DNA of 64,000 bases from Eledone cirrhosa (Eukaryota), in NCBI GenBank assembly GCA_964016885.1, contig OZ024752.1:42656001-42720000 (forward strand), given 5' to 3'. The translations under genes were made by a program, and so were the position numbers. The notes under the pieces are model-generated. The model was not told the origin of the DNA. It made no database searches and saw only the letters and a list, made by a program, of their open reading frames with translations. Positions 9,373-64,000 of this stretch are shown here, in pieces (within the stretch, counting starts at the first letter, position 1; each line of letters begins with the position of its first letter).

Positions 9373-9715
9373 TCATTTCATTTTTCATTTCATTTTACGT
9401 CCACTTTTCCCTGCTTGCAAGGGTGGGACGGGAACTGATTCTGGCTTGATTTCTACAGCTGGATGCCCTTCCTAACACTAACCTCATTTACAGTGAGTGC
9501 TGGGTGCTTTTTTGCCATGGCACCTCCACGACCACTTTGCAGTGGAATGATAGGGACCCCAGTCCCTATCATCTCATTTCTACAGCTGAGTAAACTGGAG
9601 CAATGTGAAATAAAGTGTCTTGCTCAAGGAAACAACACATCACCCGGTCTGAGAATTGAACTCACAACCTTTCGATTGCAAGGCCAATGCTCTAACCACT
9701 AAGCCATGTGCCTCC
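9373..9715 (-). mobile_element. Young tRNA-derived CORE-type SINE with RTE-like tail (family A)
   Basis: A/B-box tRNA-like head, CORE-like ccttgagcaagacact, (GAT)n tail; near-identical copies at 18258-18594, 36047-36397, 36968-37305, 43348-43694, 44812-45147 (all -) and 41796-42146 (+). Confidence 0.9.
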
Positions 9716-11483: not shown

Positions 11484-11601
11484 TGGAAAGTGTATAGTTA
11501 ATAAACACACTGCTATATATATATATATATATATATAAATATATATATATATAGTTATAGTTATAGGAATAACCAAAGAGTGCTTAGAGATACATTGTTT
11601 T

Positions 11602-11654
11602 ATTAGCTCACAGTGTTTCATCCATACAGCATGGCAGGTATCTTCAGAGCCTAT
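11602..11654 (-). ncRNA. Hammerhead-like motif, probably inactive
   Basis: ggct-CTGAAGA...ccat/atgg...GAAAC-act-GTG-agct-AATAAA; GUG breaks the NUH cleavage rule. Confidence 0.55.
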
Positions 11655-11731
11655 AAACATGAAATATATATATATATACATATATATACACATACATATA
11701 TATATATTTATATATATATATATATACACAC

Positions 11732-13715: not shown

Positions 13716-14580
13716 TTAACCATTTAGCATTTAAACCAGCCACATCCGGCCAGAATTCTCTCACCTCTTTCTGTTCAAACCGGCTGTAACTTGCTACTCA
13801 TACTGATGTTAAGGTATTGTTCTCAAAATAAATAATATCAAAATCTCAAAGATTCAATATTATGTGAGGTAAAGTGTTTACCTTGAAAATATAATAGTAA
13901 ATATAGAGTAATGTAAATGATAAAGGGTTAAACCAGCCAGAATTCTTTCTCCTGTTTCTGTTCAAATCAGCTGCACATACTGATGTTAAGGTATTGTTCT
14001 CAACATAAATAATATCAAAATCTCAAAGATTCAATATTATGTGAGGTAAAGTGTTTACCTTGAAAATATAATAGTAAATATAGAGTAATGTAAATGATAA
14101 AGGGTTAAACCAGCCAGAATTCTTTCTCCTGTTTCTGTTCAAATCAGCTGCACATACTGATGTTAAGGTATTGTTCTCAACATAAATAATATCAAAATCT
14201 CAAAGATTCAATATTATGTGAGGTAAAGTGTTTACCTTGAAAATATAATAGTAAATATAGAGTAATGTAAATGATAAAGGGTTAAACCAGCCAGAATTCT
14301 TTCTCCTGTTTCTGTTCAAATCAGCTGCACATACTGATGTTAAGGTATTGTTCTCAACATAAATAATATCAAAATCTCAAAGATTCAATATTATGTGAGG
14401 TAAAGTGTTTACCTTGAAAATATAATAGTAAATATAGAGTAATGTAAATGATAAAGGGTTAAACCAGCCAGAATTCTTTCTCCTGTTTCTGTTCAAATCA
14501 GCTGCACATACTGATGTTAAGGTATTGTTCTCAACATAAATAATATCAAAATCTCATAGATTCGATATTATGTGAGATAG
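13716..14580. repeat. 177-bp tandem array (about 4.5 units) of a piggyBac-type MITE
   Basis: gggttaaaccagccagaattc recurs at 13925, 14102, 14279, 14456. Confidence 0.9.
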
Positions 14581-14691: not shown

Positions 14692-14722
<31 letters not shown>

Positions 14723-14760
14723 CCGATATATTGTATTGGCTGATAGTACTTCTTGCGGTT

Positions 14761-14808
14761 TTGATTGCCCTGATGAGTCCTTAATAGGACGAAACATTGT
14801 TGGCTAAT
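14761..14808 (+). ncRNA. Minimal type I hammerhead ribozyme
   Basis: attgcc-CTGATGA-gtcct(taat)aggac-GAAAC-att-GTT-ggctaat: core, 5-bp stem II, minimal stem III, GUU site, bulged stem I; AATAAA follows. Confidence 0.75.
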
Positions 14809-14849
14809 AAAGACTTTTGATGTATTGAAGGCTTCTTTGTTTTATTTTC

Positions 14850-14893
<44 letters not shown>

Positions 14894-15784: not shown

Positions 15785-17488
15785 TATATATAATATATAT
15801 ATATACATACACACAAATACATATAAATGTAGACATGTGTATTATATATTGTCATTATGATTTTATTTTATGCATCATACATATCATCATCATCATCATC
15901 ATCATCGTTTAACGTCCGTGTTCCATGCTTGCATGGGTTTGGACGGGAGTTTTCCCACTTGAGGCAAGAGTAGTTGTCTTGCTCGCATAGGACTGTCTGG
16001 CGGGTTTTCTACAGTTGGATGCCCTTTCTAACACCAACCACATTTACAGTGTGGGACTGGGAGGTTTTTACCGTGTTACCTACACGGTCACATTACAGCG
16101 TGGACTGTGTGTTTTTTTGTCGTGACACCTACACGATCTCATTTGTTTTGGCCTGTATTTTGTGGCACCAACATAACTTTACATTGAAAGGGGGGGGTGG
16201 ATGGGGTGGGGGTGTATTTTGTTAGAGATGCCTACTGACTGTAGTAGGTTTTACTTTGTATTTAGGTAACGCGGGTCTTCTCTATTACTGAGTACCGCCA
16301 AAGCTCTCGGTCCAGTGACATTGTCTTGGAGAGGTGTAAGTGTGTGAGGTCGGAATTTATCAGATTGTCCCAGGTTTTTCTGGGTCTGCCTACTCCGTGG
16401 CTACCGTCTATCTTTATTGCCCTATATATATATATACCTGCGTATAATATACACACTACACATGCTAGCAGAAAACCACCCGAAGAGTGGTTTTTCTGCT
16501 AGTATATATAATATATATATATACATACACACAAATACATATAAATGTAGACATGTGTATATGAAAATATGACTATTCCACTAAACAGTTGTATTGATTC
16601 ACACAAGTCAGTGTCTATTTTTCTCTCTCTTTCTTATCTCTGTTATTGGTTGATTTGTTTATTTATATTTATAATTTGTTTATTTATATTTATAATTTGT
16701 TTATTTATATTTTGCACTTTCTTAGTTTCTAAGTTTGTTTCATGTACTCCACTATCTCAGTCTGAGAATGTCTAGTTTATTGTCATTAGACATCTATCAT
16801 CATCATCATCATCATTTAACTCTTTAGCATTTAAACCAGCCGTATCCGACCAGAATTCTCTCACCGTTTTCTGTTCAAACTGGCTTTAACTGGCCACTCA
16901 TACTGATGTTAAGGTATTTTTCTCAAAATAAATAATACCAAAATCTCTTAGATTTGATATTATGTGAGATAATTATGTGAGGTAAAGCCTTTACCATGAA
17001 AATACAACAGTAAATATAGAGTAATGTAAATGTTATGTGAGATAATTATGTGAGGTAAAGCCTTTACCATGAAAATACAACAGTAAATATAGAGTAATGT
17101 AAATGCTATGTGAGATAATTATGTGAGGTAAAGCCTTTACCATGAAAATACAACAGTAAATATAGAGTAATGTAAATGCTAAAAAGTTAATGTCCAGGGT
17201 TTTCCTGCTATGAAAAGTTCCACAGGTTATCCCAGACGAAGCCAGTACTCAGTTGGTGCTACTGACATCTCAGTTGGGCCAGCATCTCACACCTCACTTA
17301 CATACATTCTTGAACTCTACAGAGTGCACTGGGTGCATTTTATCGTTGCACCAGAACTCGGAGTGTTGTTATGTCTTTGATACAACTGAAAAGCCCTCTC
17401 ATCTTTTTGTTTCACAAGCTCTCTACAGCTGGATGCCCTTCCTATTACCAACCACTTTACAGAGTCTACTGGTTTACAGTTTGTGTGT

Positions 17489-17720: not shown

Positions 17721-19440
17721 TGTGTTTATATATGTGTGTGTGTGTGCCAATGTGGTTGGCATTAGGACAAGCATATCCAGATGTAAAAACCAAGCTCAAA
17801 ACAGTTCTGTATGAGCAAGAGTCATCTGATCTGGTTTGTCTCACGATGGGACAACTTGTTTAACTTATGATAATGTAGAAAAATGGATGCTAACTCTTTA
17901 GCATTTACATTACTCTATACATACTATTCTATTTTTGTGGTAAATATTTTATCTCACATAATATCGCACATAATATTGAATCTATGAGATTTTGAAAGTA
18001 TTTATTTTGAGAACAATACCTTAACATCAGTTTGAGCGACCAGTTACAGCCAGTTTCAACAGGAAGAGGTGAGAGAATTCTGGCCGCTTTGAACATTAGA
18101 GGGTTAACATCAGTATGAGTGGCCAGTTATGACCAGTTTGAACAGAAAGAGGTGAGAGAATTCTGGCCGGATATGGCCGGTTTAAATGCTAAAGGGTTAA
18201 ACACTGATGAGGATGGTGAGGAGGATATATGTGGCTGTGTGTGTGTTTATATACATATCATCATCATCATTTTACGTCCGCTTTTCCTTGCTTGCAAGGG
18301 TGGGACGGGAACTGATTCTGGCTTGATTTCTACAGCTGGATGCCCTTCCTAACACCAACCTCATTTACAGTGAGTGCAGAGTGCTTTTTTTTGCCGTGGC
18401 ACCTCCACGACCACTTTGCAGTGGAACGATAGGGACCCCAGTCCCTATCATCTCATTTCTACAGCTGAGTAAACTGGAGCAATGTGAAATAAAGTGTCTT
18501 GCTCAAGGAAACAACACATCACCCGGTCTGAGAATTGAACTCACAACCTTTCGATTGCAAGGCCAATGCTCTAACCACTAAGCCATGTGCCTCCATCATA
18601 TATATATATATATACACACACACAGGGTGTCCCCAAAAAGTCTATACGCACTTTGATTACATGTACAGGTAATATTTATTAAAATGCACAGTTTTTTCCC
18701 AAAATAAAATGATCTACAGACATAATTCTATTGTCTGTAAATACCCAAAAATGTTTACATAATTTAAATAATAAATATAAAATAGAATTTATTTTAATGC
18801 ATTTTTTTTTTGTGGTTGAAGTATGTATACATATTTTGGGACACCCTGTACATCATCATCATCATCATTTAACGTCTATCTTCCACGCTAGCATGGGTTA
18901 GACGGGAATTGTCCCATTTGAGGTAAGATTGGTCAGGTGACACACACACAACCACAGTAAAGTACTCAATATATAACAGAGTATAAATGTTTAATATAGA
19001 AACGCCTTCTACAAGACTAGAACTAATATTATCCTTCGAATAAAACAGTTCTAGACCTGTAGAAGCCATTTCTGTATTATATATATATATATATATACAG
19101 CAGCTGCCATATCACTCACTACAGTCATGTACTCCACCTAACAATAGCTCCCTTTGCCAATTAACCCTAATTATTTATTAATTAAATGCCATTGAATTAG
19201 ATGGCATTCTTTTGATTAATTTATCAGGCAGGCAAGGTGGAGTAGTCAGTGACTTTCACAGGTCCTTTAATGAAGCTAACAATTCTAGGTAACCACTAAG
19301 TATGTCAACACTGACTTAACTGTTTTGTTTTTCCTGCAGAAGGCGTCCTTGGGTATTCCTCTCCTACCCTTTATCTAATTTGTAAGAACTTCCATCTTCC
19401 CCGTTGACTTGAAGTTCTGGATAAAAAAATAATTTACTAC

Positions 19441-21007: not shown

Positions 21008-21120
21008 ATACATACACACGAGAAGGTGATTCCCTTGAAAGGACTTGTAAAAGATGAGTTGAAACGGCTGGGCTTGCCCTTGGGTTCTTGCTTCTTTATA
21101 TATATATATATATATATATA

Positions 21121-21295
21121 GGAGAAAGTATGACCCCGACGACAGAGCTCAAGCCGTTTCGACGGCTATTTCTGGACTAAAGTCAGAAATAGCCGTCGGG
21201 GTCATACTTTCTCCTATTACCCACTCTACTACCCTAAGTATTGAGCACTCTGGTGCGTTATGGTCCATCTGGTTCCTTACCACAACTTCTCCGTT
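21121..21295 (-). mobile_element. GC-rich foldback element between (TA)n tracts; related copy at 63607-63782
   Basis: Shared about 85-bp body plus a palindrome containing GAAACGGCTTGAGCTC. Confidence 0.6.
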
Positions 21296-21489
21296 ATATA
21301 TATCATCATCATCATCGTCGTTTAACGTCTATCTTCCACACTAGCATGGGTTAGGCGGGAATTGTCCCACTTGAGGCAAGATTAATCGGGTGACCGTGTC
21401 TCGCTCGTATAGGACTATATATATATATATATTGTCCGTTCCCTTGTCGTTTTAACTGGGATTGCCTCGGGAACGTAACCTTATGTACG

Positions 21490-21567
21490 AAGCTGTCTGA
21501 TGATGTCACGGCACTGGGTACACGGAATCGTGTGGCCACTGTCGTCATTGAAATATGTATCAGTCTT
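21490..21567 (+). ncRNA. Hammerhead-like motif with long stem II
   Basis: CTGATGA 21497-21503, extended hairpin, GAAATATGTATC 21550-21561, AATAAA 21571; stem I imperfect. Confidence 0.5.
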
Positions 21568-21597
21568 ATCAATAAAAGTAGTTTCAGATGTTAAAGT

Positions 21598-21657
<60 letters not shown>

Positions 21658-24297
21658 TGGCTGTCAACTCGTTTTCGAGTACGGCCACTAGTTTATATCG
21701 ATGTAGGAGAAACCCTACTGATGCGCTGAACGAGTGTGACTTTTTAGTCCAGCCAGCGACTTGAAAACTCTGGTACAAACACTACACTTGTGACAATTAC
21801 TGACACATAGTGCTAGGCCCATGGTACCATGTGACAACAAGTGCAGAGAGATCTCCAGATATAAAGCAATGCCTGTGCCGTGAAGCTTTTATAGTGAGCA
21901 AAGGCACTGCACAAAGCCAGTCCCACTCTCTTAACCAAGATGATATTTACCAAAAAGAAGAACAAGTCAACATCATTGGATACCATCAGGGTTGCAGGTG
22001 TTATATCAGAGTTTTCCTTCTCCTAGAATTCTGCCTTGACAAAGGCTAAGGGGTCATCTCTCCCGGTGATTCTGGATGGCCATTGACTCTTAAGAGGTCC
22101 TTTGCCCTTTTGATATGTATATACATATATATATATATACATATACAATGTGGTCTATATATATATGCATGTAGGTATAACAATGCCATGCCAGATTAGG
22201 TTAGTTACTCCTGACCACTCATCTGGCAAAAGTGAATTATACCTGTAAATCAAAGGGCCAGCCTTGGCACAAGATGCCGCGTTAAAACCCGCTAAGAATT
22301 ATATTAAGGCTACACGTGTCTATGAAATGTCCAGCTACTTGCACGTTAATTTTATGAGCCGGCTGTTCTCTAGGCCTTAATAAAGAAAATATTTCTACTA
22401 TGGTAAGCTGAAATATATAGATAGGTTTCTTTGGTAAACTGAGATAGATATCTTTCTTTATTTGCCACAGGGGCGTACAAAAATGGGACATTAGAAGACG
22501 TGACGGCGGGTGTTTTACATAAATCTTTAACAATGATGAATAACAATAAACTATATATAAAATAAAACAATCGAAATCCTCATTAGGGGGCAACGTTACT
22601 GCGGGGTTGTTTTACACCCCGTGGATAGAACAACCCTCAACACCAGGAACACGTTTTGTAGGTGTTCCCGTCTTCCCTCTGTTTATCTTCCTCAACCTAC
22701 AGAGAAGGCCCAAGATAGATTTCTTTCTTTATTTGCCACAAGACAGGCAGATATACACGCACACGCCTAGCTGCTATTTCTAGCATATCAAACAACCGGG
22801 TGTAGAGTGAGGCTCCGCAGAAAATGTAGGTCAGGTGTGTTGTCTTTATTAAACAGACAGCAGGTTTAGCAGCTACAATGAAAAAGCCAGGTGGCAGGAA
22901 AACGTCTAAAGTTTCCATTAATATGTAGTAGCATCCACGTGGTGCATATTGACATGAGGTAGACTGAGGCAAGAAGTACTTTTGTTAAATAAAGTTGTTT
23001 ACAAGCAACAAAAGCAGACCTAATCATGGAAGAGGGGGGAGTGAGGGAGGATATGGGAAGGTAAAAGTTTGTATAAGGAGGGGGAGGGGGTAATCATTTA
23101 TGGTATCGGGAGGGGAGAGATAAGCGTTTATATGGGAAGGAAGGAGAGGGTAGTGGATTGTAGAGGGAGGGGCTTACAGTTATATGATGGAGAGGGAGGG
23201 GGTAGAGGTTTATGAGACAGACGAGGTGGGAGAGATGTGCTTAGTATAAGAATTAGGAATGGGGGGGGGGGGGGGGAACTAATGGTTTATAGACGAAGGA
23301 GGAGGAAGAACAAATTTGAAGGTGAAGGTTGACAAAACTGCTGACTACGGCCATTAAAGTTGTTGACAGGTTAACTACATAGTAGTGTGGTTAACAAGTT
23401 CGGTTGGCAATCATGAGGTCTGGGGTTCGATCTCACTGTATTGTGTGATATCTTGGGCGAGTATCTTTATCTAGGGTTAATCGAGCGCAAAAGTTGCGAG
23501 TGAAATTCAGCAGACAAAGACTGTATCAAACTTCAAATATTCACAATGTGAAGGTTCACTAGTAAAGATACTACGAATATTTGAATTAACAAACTAGTTT
23601 TTAGATATTTTCTGTTAAATCATTAGGTCCACTAGTAAACATACTATAAACATTTAAATTAACAAACCTGCTTTTATTTTCGCTTAATTCTTACAGAATG
23701 TTAAAGAGATAATTGTTTCTACTTTAGGCACAAGGCCAGCAATTATCCAGTGCATTACTGGTACTTTATTTTATCGACCCCGTAAGGATGAAAGGCAAAG
23801 TTAACCTCGGCGGGATTTGAACTCAGATCGTAAAGGGACGTAACTCTTTGCATCAAAGCATGGCGTCCGACCCTCTACTGATACTGCCAATCCATTAAAG
23901 AGATAATGCTGTAAATTTTCACAGCAATCTGTTCAATAGTAAAGATACTATAAGCATTTATATTAACAGAATTGTTTTTAAATATTTTTTGCTAAATCAT
24001 TACAAAATGCTAAGAGTTAATATCACAAACATTTCCCAAATATAATTACTTGATAGATCTTCATTAAAATTGCAAAAGATATATGACTGATTAAATCTAA
24101 AAACTAAATTAAAATTACCGTATATGTCAGTGTATAAGTCGATCCGGCGGATAGGTCGACTCCTGGTTTGGGAGAGATATTTTTAGGCTTCAAATGTCGA
24201 CATGTACGCTGGCATATACAATATGTTGATTTTTAGAAATTCAGTTATTGAAGTGATTTACTTCATTAAGAATATCAAATAAACGTATATCTATATA

Positions 24298-32500: not shown

Positions 32501-35500
32501 ACTGGGTGCATTTTATTGTTGCACCAGTGCTACCATTTTACAGAGTGTACTAGATGCATTTTATAGTAGCATCAGTACTACCATTTTACAGAGTGTACTG
32601 GGTGCATTTTATAGTGGCACTAATGCTATTGTTTCATAGAGTGGGCAGTAGCACTATGGAGATCATTGTGTCCTCAGTTGAGTAGAGAAGCAGTGACGGA
32701 TATGTGGTTGAGAGGGGTGAAAGACGGGTGGATGTAACAAAGTGAAAATCATAGGCGTTAGCTTTTATTAGAAATACGGTAAGAAAAGGGTAAATAAGGT
32801 CAATATAACAAAACCATTAAAACAACCTAAAGTCTTATTGTCCTGATTTTCTAGATTTATTTGATATCTAAAATCAATAATATAGAGCTGGGCAACAGAT
32901 GGTAGCTTCCCAATAAGTTTATTGGACAAAATATATCTAACCACTTGAAAACACAATAGTGAAAAATTTGTAAACAACTTGTGACCTTGTGCTTGACTTA
33001 TGATTGTTAAGTCATTGGTTCAATTCCAAGACAGTTTATTTCACATTGTTCCAGTCTGCATGCATGCATGGATGGTTCCATAACTGCTGAGGGGGTTGCA
33101 GAGGTGCCATATTAGCATACAGCGTTTCTAGGGCATGTTTAACCCTTTAGCCTTTACATTACTCTATATATATACTATTGTATTTTCGTGGTAAAGGCTC
33201 TATCTCACATGATATCGAACCTACGAGATTTTCATATTATATATTTTGAGGACAATACCTTAATATAAGTATGAACAACCAGTTAAAGGCAGTTTGAACA
33301 GAAAGAGGTGAGAAAATTCTGGCCGGATATGGCCAGTTTAAATGCTAAAGGGTTAAACCCGGCTGAGTTGATGATCTCCTCTCTCCAGGTTTGAACACAG
33401 TAGATTTCTTCCAGAGAAGAAAAGAGAGAGTGAGAGAATGGAAGCGAGAAAGAAACAGAGGAAAAATGGACCCCAATACTACACTGGTACTTTTTCTTTT
33501 ATTGATTTCAAAAGGGTTAAAGGCAAAGGTGACCTCGGCGAGATTTGAAATCTGAGCGTCAGGAGCTGAAACGAATAATGCAAAGCAGTCTATCCAATGT
33601 TCTAATGACTGTCAGTTTGCTGCCTTTGTTCCAGTCTATTCAACTGAAATATATAAGTACCAGCATCAGTTGGGGATTAGTTGTGCAATAGACTGGTGCC
33701 CCGTCCTTAACATCAATAGAGAGAAATGAAGCGAGCATGTTTCGCTGAATGTATAATGTTAGTGAACATGATCAAAAAAGTATGGGTGAGCTGAGAGAAA
33801 AAAACTGGGACATATGAGGAATCAGATGTAGTGTACGAGAGGGAAGACTGCACTGCTATGGACATGTGACGTATATGAATGATGATCGGCGGGTAAAGGA
33901 GTACCAAAAGATGCCAGCGGAAGGAAGTTGTAGGAAAGGAAGACCGAGGAAAAGCTGGGCAGAGGTGGTTAGATCTAATTTCAAAACAGTGAGTCTCACA
34001 AAGGAGATGACAAAGGTATGCAGCAAGTGGAAGAATGCTATGCTAGAGAGAACCTGTCTGATCTATGCAAGTATAAAAAAAATGGACATGAAACGTTGAT
34101 GATGATGATGATGATGATGAAACCAGGATAAGTCCTAACCTGAGGAGCCTCTGGGTATGGGACAGACTTTAACTTAAGTCTGGAAGAAAGGAAGAAATAG
34201 AAAGAAAGCATTCCATACCATCAAGTTCTCTGTTGTGATATTTGGTAACCGCTGCAACTGCATCATTGTAGGATAAATAGACAACTTCTGCACAACCGGC
34301 TTTCAAGAGATGCGCCTTTTTTAGTGCACCAACTGCACCAAATAACTCCTAGAACAAACAACAAATAGATAATATCAGTTACATCCCCATCATTGTCACC
34401 CCACCACCTCCACTACCATCATTACCCCCATCACCACTTCCACCTCAAACAAACATTACCCCACCATCCTTGTCACCCTGCCTCCACTATTGTCATTACC
34501 TCCATCACCACTCCCACCACAAACATTACTCCCTCATCCACCACAAACATTACCCCCTCATCATTATCTCCATCACCCACCCACCCACCACAAACAACAT
34601 TACTCCACCATCCTGGTCACCCAGCCTCCACTATCATCATTACCTCCATCACTACTGTCTCCACAAACACCATTACCTCCATCACCAACTCACCACCAGC
34701 CTCCACTTCCACCACAAACACCATTACCCCCACCATCATAATTTTACATCAACTTTCTGTGCTAGCATGGAGTGGAAAGGTTGTGACAGTCTGAGCAAAT
34801 CCTTATTGGGAGTTGCTGCACCCAGAAAACAGGTCAGAGGACTATGCGAGTCTACTGGGTGCATTTTATCGTGATATCAGTGCTATCACTTTACAGAATG
34901 GACTCAGTGCATTTTATCATGGCACCAACACTAACACTTTACAGAATGCACTACATTTTGTTTTGACAACACTAACACTTTACAGAATGCACTACATTTT
35001 GTTTTGACAACACTAACACTTTACAGAATGCACTACATTTTGTTTTGACAACACTAACACTTTACAGAATGCACTACATTTTGTTTTGACAACACTAACA
35101 CTTTACAGAATGCACTACATTTTGTTTTGACAACACTAACACTTTACAGAATGCACTACATTTTGTTTTGACAACACTAACACTTTACAGAATGCACTAC
35201 ATTTTGTTTTGACAACACTAACACTTTACAGAATGCACTACATTTTGTTTTGACAACACTAACACTTTACAGAATGCACTACATTTTGTTTTGACAACAC
35301 TAACACTTTACAGAATGCACTACATTTTGTTTTGACAACACTAACACTTTACAGAATGCACTACATTTTGTTTTGACAACACTAACACTTTACAGAATGC
35401 ACTACATTTTGTTTTGACAACACTAACACTTTACAGAATGCACTACATTTTGTTTTGAAGACAGTGAGTTAAGTTTGAAATTGAGGTCATATTTGTGCAT

Positions 35501-38500
35501 AACTTTTGTAATAACTCCAAAAATTCCTGCTTTGTGCTAGGACAAAACAATCGTTAGTTATTAAACATTTGAAAGATTAAACACCCTTTCATTATTATTT
35601 ACATTGTATATATCAACCCGCCGAGGTTAACTTTGCCTGTCATCCTTACGGGGTCGATAAAATAAAGTACCAGTAATACACTGGGTAATTGCTGGCCTTG
35701 TGCCTAACGTAGAAACAATTATTATTTACATTGTATATATCATCATCATCATCATCGTTTAACGTCTACCTTCCACGCTAGCATGGGTTAGACGGGAATT
35801 GCCCCACTTGAGGCAAGATTGGTCGGGTGACCGTGTCTCGTTCATATGGGACTGCCTGGCAGGTTTTCTACGGCTGGATGCCCTTCCGAACACCAACCAC
35901 ATTGACAGTGTGGACTGGGAGCTTTTTACCGTGTTACCTACACGACCACATTACAGCGTGGACTGTGTGTTTTTTTGTCATGACCCCTACACGACCTCAT
36001 TAGTTTAGTTTTATATATATATATGATAGGCTCCATACAGACACTATCATCATCATCATCATCATCATTTCCTTTTACGTCCGTTTTTTTCCCTGCTTGC
36101 AAGAGTGGGACGGGAACTGATTCTGGCTTGATTTCTACAGCTGGATGCCCTTCCTAACACCAACCTCATTTACAGTGAGTGCTGGGTGCTTTTTTTCCGT
36201 GGCACCTCCACGACCACTTTGCAGTGGAATGATAGGGACCCCAGTCCCTATCATCTCATTTCTACAGCTGAGTAAACTGGAGCAATGTGAAATAAAGTGT
36301 CTTGCTCAAGGAAACAACACATCACCCGGTCTGAGAATTCAACTCACAACCTTCCGATTGCAAGGCCAATGCTCTAACCACTAAGCCATGTGCCTCCATT
36401 ATATCAACTAAAATCACGCAACCACCACTACAACTACTTGTAAACATTCTTTTACTATCAACTGAAATAACCTCCAAAAGAACGAACGTAGACCAATTGA
36501 TTAACTACAATCTCTCTACACCCCACCCCAATTCTCTCTCATAACTTGGTCTCCCTCTCTCAGATCTTTGCTTCTCTCACTCTTATTCAGATCCCACCCT
36601 CCCACACACACAAGATTAATATCATACTCTTCCCAAGGTAATCAATAGTGTTATTGTTTACGACACAAACACACTCTTGTTTGTATTATTTCACGACTTT
36701 TCAAAATATAGATGACCTCAATATCTCGATATATATATTACAAGTTGAAAGATTGAAAGATTGTTACATAAATACTCTTACAAACTATCAAATCATCATC
36801 GTTGTTTAACACTTTAGCATTTCAACTGGCAGTAACCAACCATTCATACCTATGTTAAGGTATTGTTCTCAAAATAAATAATATCAAAATTTCGTAGATT
36901 CTATATTATGTGGGATAATTATGTGAGGTAAGGTGTTTACTGTGAAAATATATAGAGTTAAGGAATAATCATCATCATCATTTCATTTTACGTCCGCTTT
37001 TTCCCTGCTTGCAAGGGTGGGACGGGAACTGATTCTGGCTTGATTTCTACAGCTGGATGCCCTTCCTAACACCAACCTCATTTACAGTGAGTGCTGGGTG
37101 CTTTTTTGCCGTGGCACCTCCATGACCACTTTGCAGTGGAATGATAGGGACCCCAGTCTCTATCATCTCATTTCTACAGCTGAGTAAACTGGAGCAATGT
37201 GAAATAAAGTGTCTTGCTCAAGGAAACAACACATCACCCGGTCTGAGAATTCAACTCACAACCTTTCGATTGCAAGGCCAATGCTCTAACCACTAAGCCA
37301 TGTGTAAATACTAAAGGGTTAAGCCAGCTGTATCCGGCCAGAATTCCTCAGCTCTTTCAGTTCAAACTGGCCATAACTAGCCATTCATACTGATGTTAAG
37401 GTATTGTTTCCAAAATAAATAATATCAAAATATCATAGATTTGATATTATGTAAGATAAAGCCTTTACCACGAAAATACAGTAGTTTATATAGAGTAAAG
37501 TAAATCTATTTTCCCTGCTAGCAAGGGTTAGATGGGTTGTCACAAATCAAACTCAGTACTTAAACGGAGCTACTGACCCCTAAGATAGCTTGTACAAGGG
37601 AAGGGGACATCCAAATTAGGTTTCCGTACTCTACAGCAGCAGTCTGGTGGTCCGAGAGAAAATTTGGACATTATTGGCAATTTTTATGTTTTATTAAAAA
37701 TAAAACAAAATTGGGTTGTCCCATTTGAGGCAAGTTGGGTCAGGTGACCATATCCTGCTCATAAAGCAGTGTTTCTGGCTAGATGCCCTTCCTAATGCTA
37801 ACCCCATTTACAGTGTGTGCTGGGTGCTTTTTGCCATGACACCTACATGGCCACTTTACAGTGTGTGCTAGGTGCTTTTTGCTACAACACCTACATGACC
37901 ACTTTACAGTGTGTGGTGGGTGCTTTTTGCCGTGACACCTACATGACCACTTTACAGTGTGTGGTGGGTGCTTTTTGCCATGACACCTACATGGCCACTT
38001 TACAGTGTGTGGTGGGTGCTTTTTGCCATGACACCTACATGGCCACTTTACAGTGTGTGCTGGGTGCTTTTTGCCATGACACCTACATGGCCACTTTACA
38101 GTGTGTGCTAGGTGCTTTTTGCTACAACACCTACATGACCACTTTACAGTGTGTGGTGGGTGCTTTTTGCCGTGACACCTACATGGCCACTTTACAGTGT
38201 GTGGTGGGTGCTTTTTGCCATGACACCTACATGGCCACTTTACAGTGTGTGCTGGGTGCTTTTTGCCATGACACCTACATGGCCACTTTACAGTGTGTGC
38301 TGGGTGCTTTTTGCCATGACACCTACATGGCCACTTTACAGTGTGTGCTGGGTGCTTTTTGCCATGACACCTACATGGCCACTTTACAGTGTGTGCTGGG
38401 TGCTTTTTGCCATGACACCTACATGGCCACTTTACAGTGTGTGCTGGGTGATTTTTGCCATGACACCTACATGGCCACTTTACAGTGTGTGCTGGGTGCT

Positions 38501-43350: not shown

Positions 43351-43923
43351 TCATTTCATCATCATTTCATTTTACGTCCGCTTTTTCCCTGCTTGCAAGG
43401 GTGGGACGGGAACTGATTCTGGCTTGATTTCTACAGCTGGATGCCCTTCCTAACACCAACCTCATTTTACAGTGAGTGCTGGGTGCTTTTTTGCCGTGGC
43501 ACCTCCACGACCACTTTGCAGTGGAATGATATGGACCCCAGTCCCTATCATCTCATTTCTACAGCTGAGTAAACTGGAGCAATGTGAAATAAAGTGTCTT
43601 GCTCAAGGAAACAACACATCACCCGGTCTGAGAATTGAACTCACAACCTTTCGATTGCAAGGCCAATGCTCTAACCACTAAGCCATGTGCCTCCATATGT
43701 GTGCGTATATATATATATATATATACGCACACATAATTGTTTCTACGTTTGCCACAAGGCCAGCAATTATCCCAGTGTATTACTGGTACTTTATTTTATC
43801 GACCCCCTAAGGATGAAAGGCAAAGTTAACCTCGGCGGGATATGAAATCAGAATGGCAGGGGCCGTAACTCTATACGTCAAAGCATGGCATCCAACCCTC
43901 CACCGATACTGCCAATCCACCGC

Positions 43924-43986
<63 letters not shown>

Positions 43987-44504
43987 ATAAAAGGATGATT
44001 TGTTATGTCTTCATTATGTTTATTGAGTGGTGACGTATGTTTCGCTATTGATCAGCTCAAGGTTCGATCTGTATTGATCTGGCCCCACTATGGAATCAAA
44101 AGCTCGTTGGGCCTCTGTTGTGGTAATGACAGAATGAACTGCATGTTACACTCTCTAGATATATATATATATATATATATATATATGGTTTGAGTGTTGC
44201 ACTTACAATTGTGAGGTTGTGAGTTCAATTCCCAGACTGGGTAATGTGTTGTGTCGTTGAGCAAGACACTTTATTTCACGTTGCTCCAGTCCACGCAGCT
44301 GTAGAAGTGAGTTGCGACGTTACAGGTGCCAAGCTGTATCGGACATTGCCTTTCTCTTGGACAATATCAGTGGTGTAGAAAAGGGAGACTGATATGCATG
44401 GGTGACTGCTGGTTGGCCTTCCACAACCAACTTTGCCCAGACTTGTGCCTCGGAAGGGGAACTTTCTAGGTGCAAATCCCATGGTCTTGTGTGACCGAAG
44501 GGGG

Positions 44505-44564
<60 letters not shown>

Positions 44565-47500
44565 TATACAATATATTAAAAATGGAAACTATATTTATAA
44601 AACCATAAATATTTTATTATATATATTTCAAGGGCTACCAAGGCAGTCTTGGTGCGCTTTCATCAGATAAAATACAAGATTTGTTTTATAAATATTGACA
44701 TAACCGTGGAAAAACTCGAGTAATCTGTTGAGTGCTTTATATCAGTTAGAAACTTTTAAGCTTGTTGGAATCCCAACAAATTAAATATAACTTCTGCATG
44801 TATATATACATATCATCATCATTTCATTTTACGTCCGCTTTTCCCTGCTTGCAAGGGTGGGACAGGAACTGATTCTGGCTTGATTTCTACAGCTGGATGC
44901 CCTTCCTAACACCAACCTCATTTAGAGTGAGTGCTGGGTGCTTTTTTTTGCCGTGGCACCTCCACAACCACTTTACAGTGGAATGATAGGGAACCCAGTC
45001 CCTATCATCTCATTTCTACAGCTGAGTAAACTGGAGCAATGTGAAATAAAGTGTCTTGCTCAAGGAAACAACACATCACCCGGTCTGAGAATTGAACTCA
45101 CAACCTTTCGATTGCAAGGCCAATGCTCTAACCACTAAGCCATGCCTCAAAGTAAAGTAAAATGTTTTTTGACTTACGATGATGTCATCTTGAGTAACAA
45201 TTGGGTGAAGATTGGTAACCAACACACGGTAGCCAGATGAAGATGAGGAATTGGAGAGAATGTCAGAAGAAAACTGAAACAAATCAAATGTTATTTCCAA
45301 TTAGAGAATGAGAAGACAAAAAATCTGAAATTCATAGCTCATGCTTATGTATGTAATGATGCTAAGTAAATGAGTCGCGAATATTCTTTGCTTTACTCAG
45401 GACTTTATTACAGAAGCAATGACAAAAAAAAGTTCTTAGCATGTCTAAGTCCATGAGTGCGCCATTTGCAAAGTGCCGAAAGAGCTTTGATGTTTAACGA
45501 AGAAGAGTTCCGCAACAAAGGGAGATAAGGGGCGAGCATGTACGCTCTATTGTATAAGCACATAAGAAATACAATCGATGAAATGACGATTTGGTAGAGA
45601 ACAAATGAACAAATGGTAAACTGCATGCAACATGGAATGGAACTAAAACAACAACAATGGAACATGCACAGCCCGAGTCATGCATGTGGAGTAGCAGAGA
45701 AGGTTGGAAAGAACAGGAATTTAGAATGATCCAATCGGTTAGTTGAGAAGAGACAATGAATCAGAGAAGACGATAGAAATAGAGCCAGTGGTAAATGTTG
45801 TGAAGAGAAATGGAAATGGTTGGGTCATGTGTTGAGGAAGAAGGATAGAAGTGACTCGGTGAGAAGAATAGAATCAGTGATGAATGCTGAAAAGAGATAT
45901 TTGGGCGATGTGTTGAGGATGGATGAATGGTGTGACGAGAAATGGAATGTGATGGTTGAGTCATGTGGTAAGGAAAGATGAATGTGATGACTGTTGTGCA
46001 CAGAGTTGGAATGAGATACCTGGGTGGAGATAGTTGAGGAAAGATGAAAGCGGCAGGGTGAGAGAAGTGATGGAAATAGAAAACCAAGAAATATATAGCT
46101 GGGGGGTGATAAAAGGGGAAAGGAAAGCCAGAGGTTGCAACCAAGAAATATATAGCTGGGGGTGATAAAAGGAGAAAGGAAAGCCAGAGATTGCAGACAA
46201 ACAAGAAATATATAGCTGGGGGTGATAAAAGGAGAAATGAAAGCCAGAGATTGCAGACAAACAAGAAATATATAGCTGGGGGTGATAAAAGGAGAAAGGA
46301 AAGCCAGAGATTGCAGACAAACAAGAAATATATAGCTGGGGGTGATAAAAGGAGAAAGGAAAGCCAGAGATTGCAGACAAACAAGAAATATATAGCTGGG
46401 GGTGATAAAAGGAGAAATGAAAGCCAGAGATTGCAGACAAACAAGAAATATATAGCTGGGGGTGATAAAAGGAGAAAGGAAAGCCAGAGATTGCAGACAA
46501 ACAAGAAATATATAGCTGGGGGTGATAAAAGGAGAAAGGAAAGCCAGAGATTGCAGACAAACAAGAAATATATAGCTGGGGGTGATAAAAGGAGAAATGA
46601 AAGCCAGAGATTGCAGACAAACAAGAAATATATAGTTGGGGGTGATAAAAGAAGAAAGGAAAGCCAGAGATTGCAGACAAACAAGAAATATATAGTTGGG
46701 GGTGATAAAAGGAGAAATGAAAGCCAGAGGGTTCGGGAGGAGGTTGCAGTCAAGAAATATATAGCTGGGGGGTGATAAAAGGGGAAAGGAAAGCCAGAGG
46801 TTGCAGCCAAGAAATATATAGCTGGGGGTGATAAAAGGAGAAAGGAAAGCCAGAGGTTGCAGCCAAACAAGAAATATATAGTTGGGGGTGATAAAAGGGG
46901 AAATGAAAGCCAGAGGTTGCAGCCAAGAAATATATAGATGGGGGTGATAAAAGGGGAAATGAAAGCCAGAGGTTGCAGTCAAGAAATATATAGATGGGGG
47001 TGATAAAAGGGGAAAGGAAAGCCAGAGGTTGCAGCCAAGAAATATATAGATGGGGGTGATAAAAGGGGAAAGGAAAGCCAGAGGTTGCAGACAAGAAATA
47101 TATAACTGGGGGTGATAAAAGGGGAAAGGAAAGCCAGAGGTTGCAGCCAAGAAATATATAGCTGGGGGTGATAAAAGGGGAAAGGAAAGCCAGAGATTGC
47201 AGACAAACAAGAAATATATAGCTGGGGGTGATAAAAGGAGAAAGGAAAGCCAGAGGTTGCAGACAAACAAGAAATATATAGCTGGGGGTGATAAAAGGGG
47301 AAAGGAAAGCCAGAGGTTGCAGACAAACAAGAAATATATAGATGGGGGTGATAAAAGGGGAAAGGAAAGCCAGAGGTTGCAGACAAACAAGAAATATATA
47401 GCTGGGGGTGATAAAAGGAGAAAGGAAAGCCAGAGATTGCAGACAAACAAGAAATATATAGCTGGGGGTGATAAAAGGAGAAAGGAAAGCCGGAGATTGC

Positions 47501-59869: not shown

Positions 59870-60419
59870 ATGACCTAATTGCTTGGGTGTCCCAAGAAAA
59901 GCCAAAACCTCCTCTGGCTCCTAAAAGAAGGAAGTGTCTTTGGAGAGTTTAGTGCCTGGATGACCAATATTGAATGGCGGAAGAAAAAACATCCTCACTC
60001 TCACACACTAATCTGGTGCAAGGAGGGGATAAGATAAGACCAGGTGTTTTGTTTTGAATTTTGGAGGGTTTGGTTGTACAAAAAAAAAAAAAAAAAAAAA
60101 AAAAAACGAATAAAAAAATTACAAATTTATTTTTGAGTCCTTCTCTTTTCACTGGCACCATACCTAATGATTCATCTATGTGTGAAGCATTACATATGCT
60201 AACTGTAAAAGGGAGTAATATTCAAAAGAACACCACTGGACAAAACCAATAATATTTTTATCTAAATCCTTTGTCTTGAACAAGCAACAATGAAAATTCT
60301 GCTATAATTCCTACTGTGGAAATAGAGTAATCCTATTTTATTGATCTTCTTCCTTTCTTCGCCCACTTATTTTTGAGAGGGTTGTGGGGACATTGTTCTC
60401 AAACACTCCCTCTAGTGGG

Positions 60420-62606: not shown

Positions 62607-62654
<48 letters not shown>

Positions 62655-62656
<2 letters not shown>

Positions 62657-62873
62657 TTCCGGGTTCAATCGGGGGTAACGCCAGTAAGTAAAGTACTCAA
62701 TACATAGAGTATTTACAAGATTTAATACAGGAATGGCTTCTACAGGACTAGAACTATTTCATTCGAAGGAAATCATCAGGGCTTTCGTGATGATTTCATC
62801 ATCAGTTCCTGATGATTTCATACAAATGAAACAGTTTTAGTCCTGTAGAAGCTTTTTCTATATTAAATCTTCG

Positions 62874-62875
<2 letters not shown>
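62655..62875. mobile_element. Palindromic TA-inserted element with inverted CTGATGA..GAAA..GTC motifs (Penelope pLTR-like); related copy at 18955-19078
   Basis: Inverted arms of about 60 bp; AAAGTACTCAATA motif; (TA)n flanks. Confidence 0.5.
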
Positions 62876-63606: not shown

Positions 63607-63608
<2 letters not shown>

Positions 63609-63782
63609 CGAAGGAAATGTGGTAAGGAACCAGATGGACCATAACGCACCAAAGTACTCAATACTTAGGGTAGTAGAGTGGGTAATAGGAACGAGTAGGA
63701 CCCCGACGGCTGAGCTCAAGCCGTTTCGCCAGAATTAGCCGTCGAAACGGCTTGAGCTCAGCCGTCGGGGTCCCACTCGTTC
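63607..63782 (+). mobile_element. GC-rich foldback element, same family as 21121-21295
   Basis: Near-perfect inverted repeat of about 40 bp (63689-63782); (TA)n flanks. Confidence 0.6.
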
Positions 63783-63849
63783 ATATATATATATATATAT
63801 ATATACACAATATATTAATAAATGGAAACTATATTTATAAAACCATATT

Positions 63850-63915
63850 TATTTTATTATACATATTTCAAGGGCAACCAAGGTAAATTATGGTGCGCTT
63901 TCATCAGATAAAATA
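63850..63915 (-). ncRNA. Minimal type I hammerhead ribozyme, same family as 44610-44674
   Basis: Same core and stem I; differences fall mainly in loop II, distal stem II and loop III. Confidence 0.72.
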
Positions 63916-64000
63916 CAGATTTGTTTTATAAATAAATATTGACATACCCGGAAAAAAAGACAACCTTAACGGTTGGAGCTTCCTGGATAGTATATATATA

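Follow-up and report, generated by a model that had tools for sequence, protein, structure and literature searches.

A complete-core type I hammerhead between (TA)n tracts in an octopod genome, likely the 3' remnant of a Penelope-like element

Hammerheads of type I with a small palindromic helix III have been reported from the pLTRs of endonuclease-bearing Penelope-like elements (PLEs), mostly as single motifs of scattered truncated elements, and they are predicted to cleave as dimers (Cervera and de la Pena, 2014, PMC4209133). The metazoan type I/PLE hammerheads are reported to show little or no cleavage as single motifs, and weak cleavage as dimers (PMC4209133, PMC6765202). The Hydra clade of PLEs, which includes Hydra-1_Obim of Octopus bimaculoides, has (TA)n as its target and a canonical hammerhead near the 3' end, in which stem III is a palindrome with a 1-nt centre and U17 is common (Craig et al., 2021, PMC8557442). 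In File S2 of that paper the hammerhead lies at most 150 nt from the 3' end in 23 of 25 Hydra families, and U17 is found in 10 of the 25. According to the same source PLE hammerheads lie near the 3' end, (TA)n is a favoured target of both Naiad and Hydra (the octopus families with this preference being Hydra-1_Obim, Naiad_Obim and Naiad_Ovul), and PLE insertions are strongly truncated at their 5' ends, an inverted truncated copy and a 30-40 bp tail at one end being frequent. PLEs are known in coleoids (PMC8967140), and in Octopus vulgaris some of them are recent, hammerheads being unmentioned in the main text of that report (PMC13282606).

Another group of elements which carries a canonical-looking type I hammerhead, lacks coding capacity and occurs in molluscs is the non-LTR retrozymes (Cervera and de la Pena, 2020, PMC7229834; bioRxiv 10.64898/2026.07.22.740005). 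Abundant linear and circular RNA is one of their traits. As will be seen below, this group supplies the main rival explanation for the locus described here.

The motif lies on the + strand of a window of 64 kb (the whole stretch of Eledone cirrhosa DNA that was analysed) and is a real type I hammerhead whose core is complete. At 14770-14801 all fixed core positions agree with the consensus in hammerhead numbering, i.e. C3 U4 G5 A6 U7 G8 A9 with U as N7, the pairs G10.1-C11.1, A15.1-U16.1 and C15.2-G16.2, the bases G12 A13 A14, and U17 at 14801; the open end of the hammerhead is in stem I. We consider it quite probable that the island which carries it is the 3' end of a 5'-truncated PLE, or of a non-autonomous derivative of one, likely inserted into (TA)n, and that cleavage after U14801 is to be predicted only for two copies joined by pairing between their palindromic stems III. 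This reading is based on the (TA)n flanks, the position at a 3' end, the dimer type of stem III and a layout which recurs across the window. The coordinates are given in Table 1.

Table 1. Features of the hammerhead island, of related islands and of the gene found in the window
Feature	Positions	Strand	Remarks
Left (TA)n tract	14692-14719	.	14 units; putative insertion target
Island, 133 nt	14720-14852	+	putative pLTR remnant, the 3' end of a 5'-truncated Penelope-like element
5' junction	14717-14745	+	two near-palindromic 12-mers 17 nt apart
Stem I, 5' strand	14757-14769	+	proximal GCC, followed outwards by ATT and by a distal GGTTTT
Catalytic core C3-A9	14770-14776	+	CUGAUGA (DNA CTGATGA)
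Stem-loop II	14777-14790	+	GTCCT 14777-14781 / AGGAC 14786-14790
GAAAC	14791-14795	+	
Core G12-A13-A14	14791-14793	+	
Palindromic stem III, ACA-U-UGU (A15.1 to U16.1)	14794-14800	+	predicted 6-pair dimer helix around a U-U mismatch
ATT, then GTT	14796-14798, 14799-14801	+	
Position 17 (U)	14801	+	predicted cleavage 3' of the base (GUU site)
Stem I, 3' strand	14802-14815	+	includes AATAAA 14806-14811
U-rich 3' tail	14816-14852	+	ends at the TA tract
Right (TA)n tract	14853-14885	.	16.5 units
Diverged relative of the island	11554-11663	-	between (TA)n tracts
Island, 168 nt	21433-21600	+	between (TA)n tracts; perfect core
Two-copy family starting at (TA)n	21121-21300, 63608-63782		longer tail on one arm
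Second hammerhead family, two copies	44560-44700, 63806-63950	-	ending in (TA)n
Inverted pair of hammerhead-bearing 3' ends	62654-62874		between (TA)n tracts
POLDIP3-like gene	56376 to 29354	-	8 exon matches (tblastn); large exons ~79-84% identical

Stem II is perfect and can be read in two registers, 5 bp with a 4-nt loop or 4 bp with the 6-nt loop UUAAUA, which is identical to the Rfam consensus CAAAUA at four of six positions. It is predicted to be firm (pair probabilities 0.95-1.0), as is the proximal GCC/GGC part of stem I, 14767-14769 with 14802-14804 (0.92-0.98). Stem I is predicted to run on with GGUUUU/AAAGAC, 14757-14762 with 14810-14815; in the register without a bulge there is a U at position 1.7 and only three clean pairs. 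The AATAAA in its 3' strand is possibly a polyadenylation signal. The hammerhead is in sense orientation and 44-48 nt from the 3' end of the island. GUU is a slower cleavage site than GUC. In PMC3138052 GUU appears among the active sites and GUG as an uncleavable one.

An initial annotation of this DNA had already pointed to the hammerhead. The parts it named (the core, stem II, GAAAC, GTT and GCC/GGC) are all found where it placed them, and its view that this is the best match in the window agrees with a rank of 1 among 146 hammerhead-like candidates by a tolerant score. Some details have to be changed. The island does lie between (TA)n tracts, but it is 133 nt long and runs from 14720 to 14852 instead of being 135 bp with a start at 14719. 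The att/aat pairing in stem I can form, but only with U14805 bulged. Three nucleotides (ATT) do follow GAAAC as it said, but they are better read as part of the palindromic stem III ACA-U-UGU than as a loop.

One may ask whether a match to the hammerhead consensus could arise by chance in DNA which is AT-rich and rich in repeats. The Rfam model RF00163 (Hammerhead_1) gives a full-length match of 29.1 bits (E 2.9e-5 for 401 nt, 0.0047 for the 64 kb), which is below the gathering score of 34 bits and to that extent speaks for chance; a scan of the window at the gathering level gave no match. It should be noted that the gathering score is a database threshold and not a biochemical feature. Among the 89 Rfam matches listed for the 64-kb window the motif at 14770 is the sole hammerhead. 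A strict descriptor matches once in the window and in none of 400 block-wise dinucleotide shuffles, and a pattern of the core and stem II with at most 3 mismatches has a single match in the window, while 0 of 100 shuffles have any; both were composed after the motif had been seen, but the margin is wide nonetheless. The tolerant score of the island, 31.5, was attained in 0 of 100 shuffles. Together with the relative at 11554-11663, which keeps 11 of 11 fixed core positions and has a stem I pair changed on both sides, the shuffles in substance refute a chance match, and we give this explanation almost no credence.

How does the hammerhead compare with the known systems? With RF00163 it shares the full-length match, the complete core, G10.1-C11.1, the open end in stem I, and a GUCC/GGAC stem II with a consensus-like loop of 6 nt; it differs in a shorter stem III loop, in GUU for GUC and in an irregular stem I with a bulged U. 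Like the hammerheads of the PLE pLTRs it is of type I with a small palindromic helix III and is predicted to cleave as a dimer, but it has neither the long helix II of the minimal PLE type nor the extra unpaired base typical of that type, which stands between A9 and 10.1. The island has no coding region attached, for which reason we class it as a likely PLE remnant and assign it to no named clade. The Hydra clade is defined by RT/EN motifs (RWK, DKT, a CxCX5C linker and the absence of CCHH). The (TA)n flanks, the canonical hammerhead near the 3' end, the palindromic stem III with its 1-nt centre and U17 are as in the Hydra clade (PMC8557442). The stem III span is however 7 nt, compared with 9-10 nt in all 25 Hydra families of that paper, which is a regularity and no formal criterion, and the 3' end of Hydra-1_Obim given there has a different sequence. 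Four motifs of the island gave no match in the PLE consensus files of PMC8557442, in which line breaks can hide matches, and six motifs from the window gave none in its supplement.

The question of monomer and dimer was approached with fold energies for 14757-14815, computed with a nearest-neighbour model which ignores the tertiary core. As a monomer the hammerhead fold has -9.6 kcal/mol, compared with -14.4 for the minimum fold, in which U4-G8 are paired with bases of stem III (probabilities 0.39-0.86) and the core is blocked. The model gives the monomer hammerhead fold a probability of 4e-5 and the stem III pairs one of 0.002. The stem III palindrome permits six pairs between two copies, and the two-strand double hammerhead has -28.9 kcal/mol compared with -19.2 for two monomer hammerheads, a gain of about 10. 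Two inactive folds have -28.8 and the best co-fold -31.6, and from these energies dimerisation would lift the penalty without winning outright. The hammerhead at 14770 is predicted to cleave only as a pair of copies.

In these calculations the opinion of the initial annotation that stem III is too short for a stable monomer finds support (-9.6 against -14.4 kcal/mol, and the gain of about 10 in the dimer), and its type I cleavage site after 14801 holds up as a prediction, position 17 being the U of GUU. A functioning dimer or trans ribozyme at this locus, which it also implied, is not supported by the results: even the dimer merely comes out level with two inactive folds, and the hammerhead has no other intact copy, and so no partner on the same strand, in the 64-kb window, the nearest relative being on the opposite strand and having G17. 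With no such partner in the window and a fold that is mostly core-blocked, the lone copy is probably silent. The annotation did not propose a (TA)n-targeting PLE as the likely source of the motif.

This nearest relative, at 11554-11663, can be aligned with the island from stem I through the 3' end. It has an intact CUGAAGA and GAA, keeps the fixed core positions mentioned above, has ACA-C-UGU as stem III and shows a compensatory U-A for C-G in the first pair of stem I; its stem II is decayed with 2 of 5 pairs left. From position 17 to the 3' end there are 57 nt in the relative and 51 nt in the island, whereas the 5' end is 16 nt from the core in the relative and ~50 nt in the island. A common 3' end and a differing 5' start, seen here with one relative, are what 5' truncation would predict. 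The alignment score was attained in 0 of 5000 shuffles, that of the part 3' of position 17 in 31 of 5000 and that of the part 3' of AATAAA in 291 of 5000, which is not significant; at three further places the window does as well against the island as the relative. We hold with moderate confidence that the aligned sequences are homologous. We also considered whether the islands at 11.6 kb and 14.8 kb could be the inverted ends of one 3-kb element, and rejected it: stem II is too different, and the intervening DNA consists of microsatellites, dispersed repeats and a 177-bp satellite. A candidate third relative, more decayed, lies at 35502-35613 (+), antisense in a POLDIP3 intron; it has E 3.4e-6 with a model which includes the TA ends and is absent once these are trimmed.

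The survey with the tolerant score suggests that the layout is common in the window. Since the scoring was set after several islands had been seen, the figures which follow for the 146 candidates are optimistic. The top six (cores at 14770+, 63907-, 44666-, 21497+, 11647- and 62809+) all have a perfect core and (TA)n 27-62 nt downstream. A tract within 100 nt is found for 8 of the 10 top candidates and for 9 of the 136 others; 7 of 14 candidates with a perfect core, three of the 14 being one locus, are near a tract compared with 10 of 132 with an imperfect core (Fisher p 1.7e-4). As background, a tract lies within 60 nt of 6.2% of the positions in the window and within 100 nt of 9.3%. Six real candidates score 18.5 or more, while 100 shuffles gave 0.44 on average and never more than 3. 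With a relaxed descriptor there are three matches, all of them 51-62 nt upstream of (TA)n (shuffle mean 0.07, maximum 2).

Two families are present twice, one at 44.6 and 63.9 kb and one at 21.1 and 63.7 kb. The copies of the former have a perfect core, 8-9 bp of stem I, a long stem II, a palindromic stem III and A17; they differ mainly in loop II, where the differences cluster, and neither is detected by Rfam. The copies of the latter contain an inverted repeat of the 3' half of a hammerhead (GAAA, a 6-bp stem III and GUC). The 168-nt island has a long stem II, a palindromic stem III and AATAAA, and its stem I is decayed. Three islands are inverted pairs with the break inside the hammerhead or at it, and two of them, at 21.1 and 63.7 kb, have a longer tail on one arm. 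The pairs at 62717-62871, 63689-63782 and 21118-21217 end in (TA)n; in the one at 62654-62874 the arms (62717-62780 and 62808-62871) are 86% complementary and joined at the core. Such pairs have their counterpart in the inverted, 5'-truncated PLE copies of PMC8557442. Several PLE 3' ends in the window are apparently uncatalogued, most of them being invisible to Rfam. Decayed hammerhead-like islands between (TA)n tracts were also seen, by eye only, at 43983-44158 (-) and 21008-21096 (+).

Returning to the island itself, the sequence flanking it on the right occurs again at 15809 and 16527, both times with no island, which indicates that the right (TA)n marks the end of the element. As a candidate for a partial terminal repeat the island has only the short one at the 5' junction; partial tandem or inverted terminal repeats are present in other islands of the window. 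The junction also folds as a hairpin of 13 pairs and resembles the 3' half of a hammerhead, and its best internal direct-repeat score was attained in 2 of 1000 shuffles. A rearrangement of the junction, or a partial tandem copy of some age, may lie behind it. The short reading frame of the island gave 0 matches in one protein search, and as a gene it was rejected after a second search gave only two false matches driven by repeats.

The main rival explanation of its origin is that the island is a non-LTR retrozyme monomer, solo and truncated, the short unit of a tandem repeat with a canonical type I hammerhead being transcribed, self-cleaved, circularised and reinserted with enzymes borrowed from PLEs. 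Stem II of the form GUCC-N6-GGAC with a loop ending in AUA follows the canonical Rfam consensus, a type which PMC7229834 assigns mostly to retrozymes; stem I of the island can be long with bulges, retrozymes of 350-390 bp are reported from mussel (PMC7229834), and so are solo monomers (bioRxiv 10.64898/2026.07.22.740005). We nevertheless consider this origin unlikely, as the window of 64 kb holds one copy and no tandem array, the 133 nt of the island fall short of the hammerhead-bearing units of 150-450 bp described in PMC7229834, and the common 3' end, the variable 5' end and the (TA)n flanks are PLE traits (PMC8557442), while no preference for (TA)n was seen in the parts of the retrozyme reports consulted. 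As the above preprint derives retrozymes from PLE pLTRs, this explanation shades into the PLE reading.

Quite a different proposal would be a domesticated ribozyme, selected for processing a host transcript, whose cleavage as a monomer is aided by a contact between stem I and loop II. Position 1.7 is the Hoogsteen contact site of canonical type I hammerheads, and the island has U1.7, in the unbulged register only, and a loop II which ends in A. For canonical type I hammerheads the Hoogsteen contact between stem I and loop II has been stated in general (PMC6155905). The core and stem II are moreover intact, most other islands in the window being decayed, but a copy which is simply younger would also be expected to stand intact among many decayed ones. 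The register which provides U1.7 offers only three clean pairs in stem I, the nearest-neighbour model hardly ever forms the monomer hammerhead (4e-5), and the sole gene found, the POLDIP3-like gene, is on the other strand with its last coding exon 14.5 kb from the hammerhead (small exons of other genes may escape the gene search). Domestication is therefore very improbable.

The preferred origin as a PLE remnant would, from what is known of PLE biology, work as follows. A GIY-YIG nick in (TA)n would prime reverse transcription from the 3' end of the element, and if this halted after ~130 nt a stub would be left. In the parent element tandem pLTRs would supply two hammerheads on one transcript; these would fold together, and the double hammerhead would cut the precursor RNA. 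A link to a PLE coding region was sought with Pfam in 300 frames, 3 of them beside islands and 297 taken from the 317 non-repetitive frames of at least 50 aa; no RT or GIY-YIG domain was matched, although broken frames would escape such a scan. This result counts against the PLE reading; for a stub of 133 nt the absence of RT and GIY-YIG is however expected.

The single locus matters little, since PLE hammerheads, the dimer design and the (TA)n targeting in octopus have been published (PMC4209133, PMC8557442), and the island is likely an ordinary kind of genomic fossil. A much bolder idea is that PLE hammerheads are spread through octopod genomes at a density of ~1 per 10 kb (at least 6-7 perfect cores from ~5 families in 64 kb), and that some lone copies still cut RNA, either in trans via the palindromic stem III or as monomers with a long stem I, and in this way shape intronic and intergenic transcripts genome-wide. 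As it stands we find this improbable. For the giant squid genome 235 Hammerhead_1 matches have been reported (PMC6962438), and a literature search for octopus or cephalopod together with hammerhead found no paper devoted to octopus hammerheads, which does not prove that there is none. The density of PLE 3' ends in the window would make octopods good for counting PLE hammerheads, and also suited to asking whether the hammerheads serve the element or merely ride on it, a question left open by PMC8557442. The compact and intact copy at 14770 would be an easy substrate for a monomer-versus-dimer assay.

As to the neighbourhood, the RRM exon of the POLDIP3-like gene, 34172-34348, was found by the Pfam scan. 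A 48-aa query from it matches POLDIP3 of Octopus sinensis with 98% identity over 92% of its length, the first of 10 matches, and these exons show the window to be octopod DNA. A C2H2-like frame (21718-21888) and a scan for bacterial promoters yielded nothing relevant. No homologues of the hammerhead were found in phages or plasmids. A collection of prokaryotic genomes contains one exact match to the pattern, on a contig of a Parcubacteria MAG (L001 2978-3026), and this was rejected as a homologue, being a different and unrelated hammerhead of type III layout; it is compact, with a GUC site, a hairpin stem I and the stem II GUCC-GAAA-GGAC. A 177-bp tandem array of 99%-identical units lies directly to the left of the island (13799-14576), and a Helitron-like fragment is present at 59879-60034 (+) (Pfam Helitron_like_N, E 1.3e-5). 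Four identical weak tRNA-like matches at 9649-9706, 18528-18585, 43628-43685 and 45085-45142 (-) are probably the heads of a tRNA-derived SINE.
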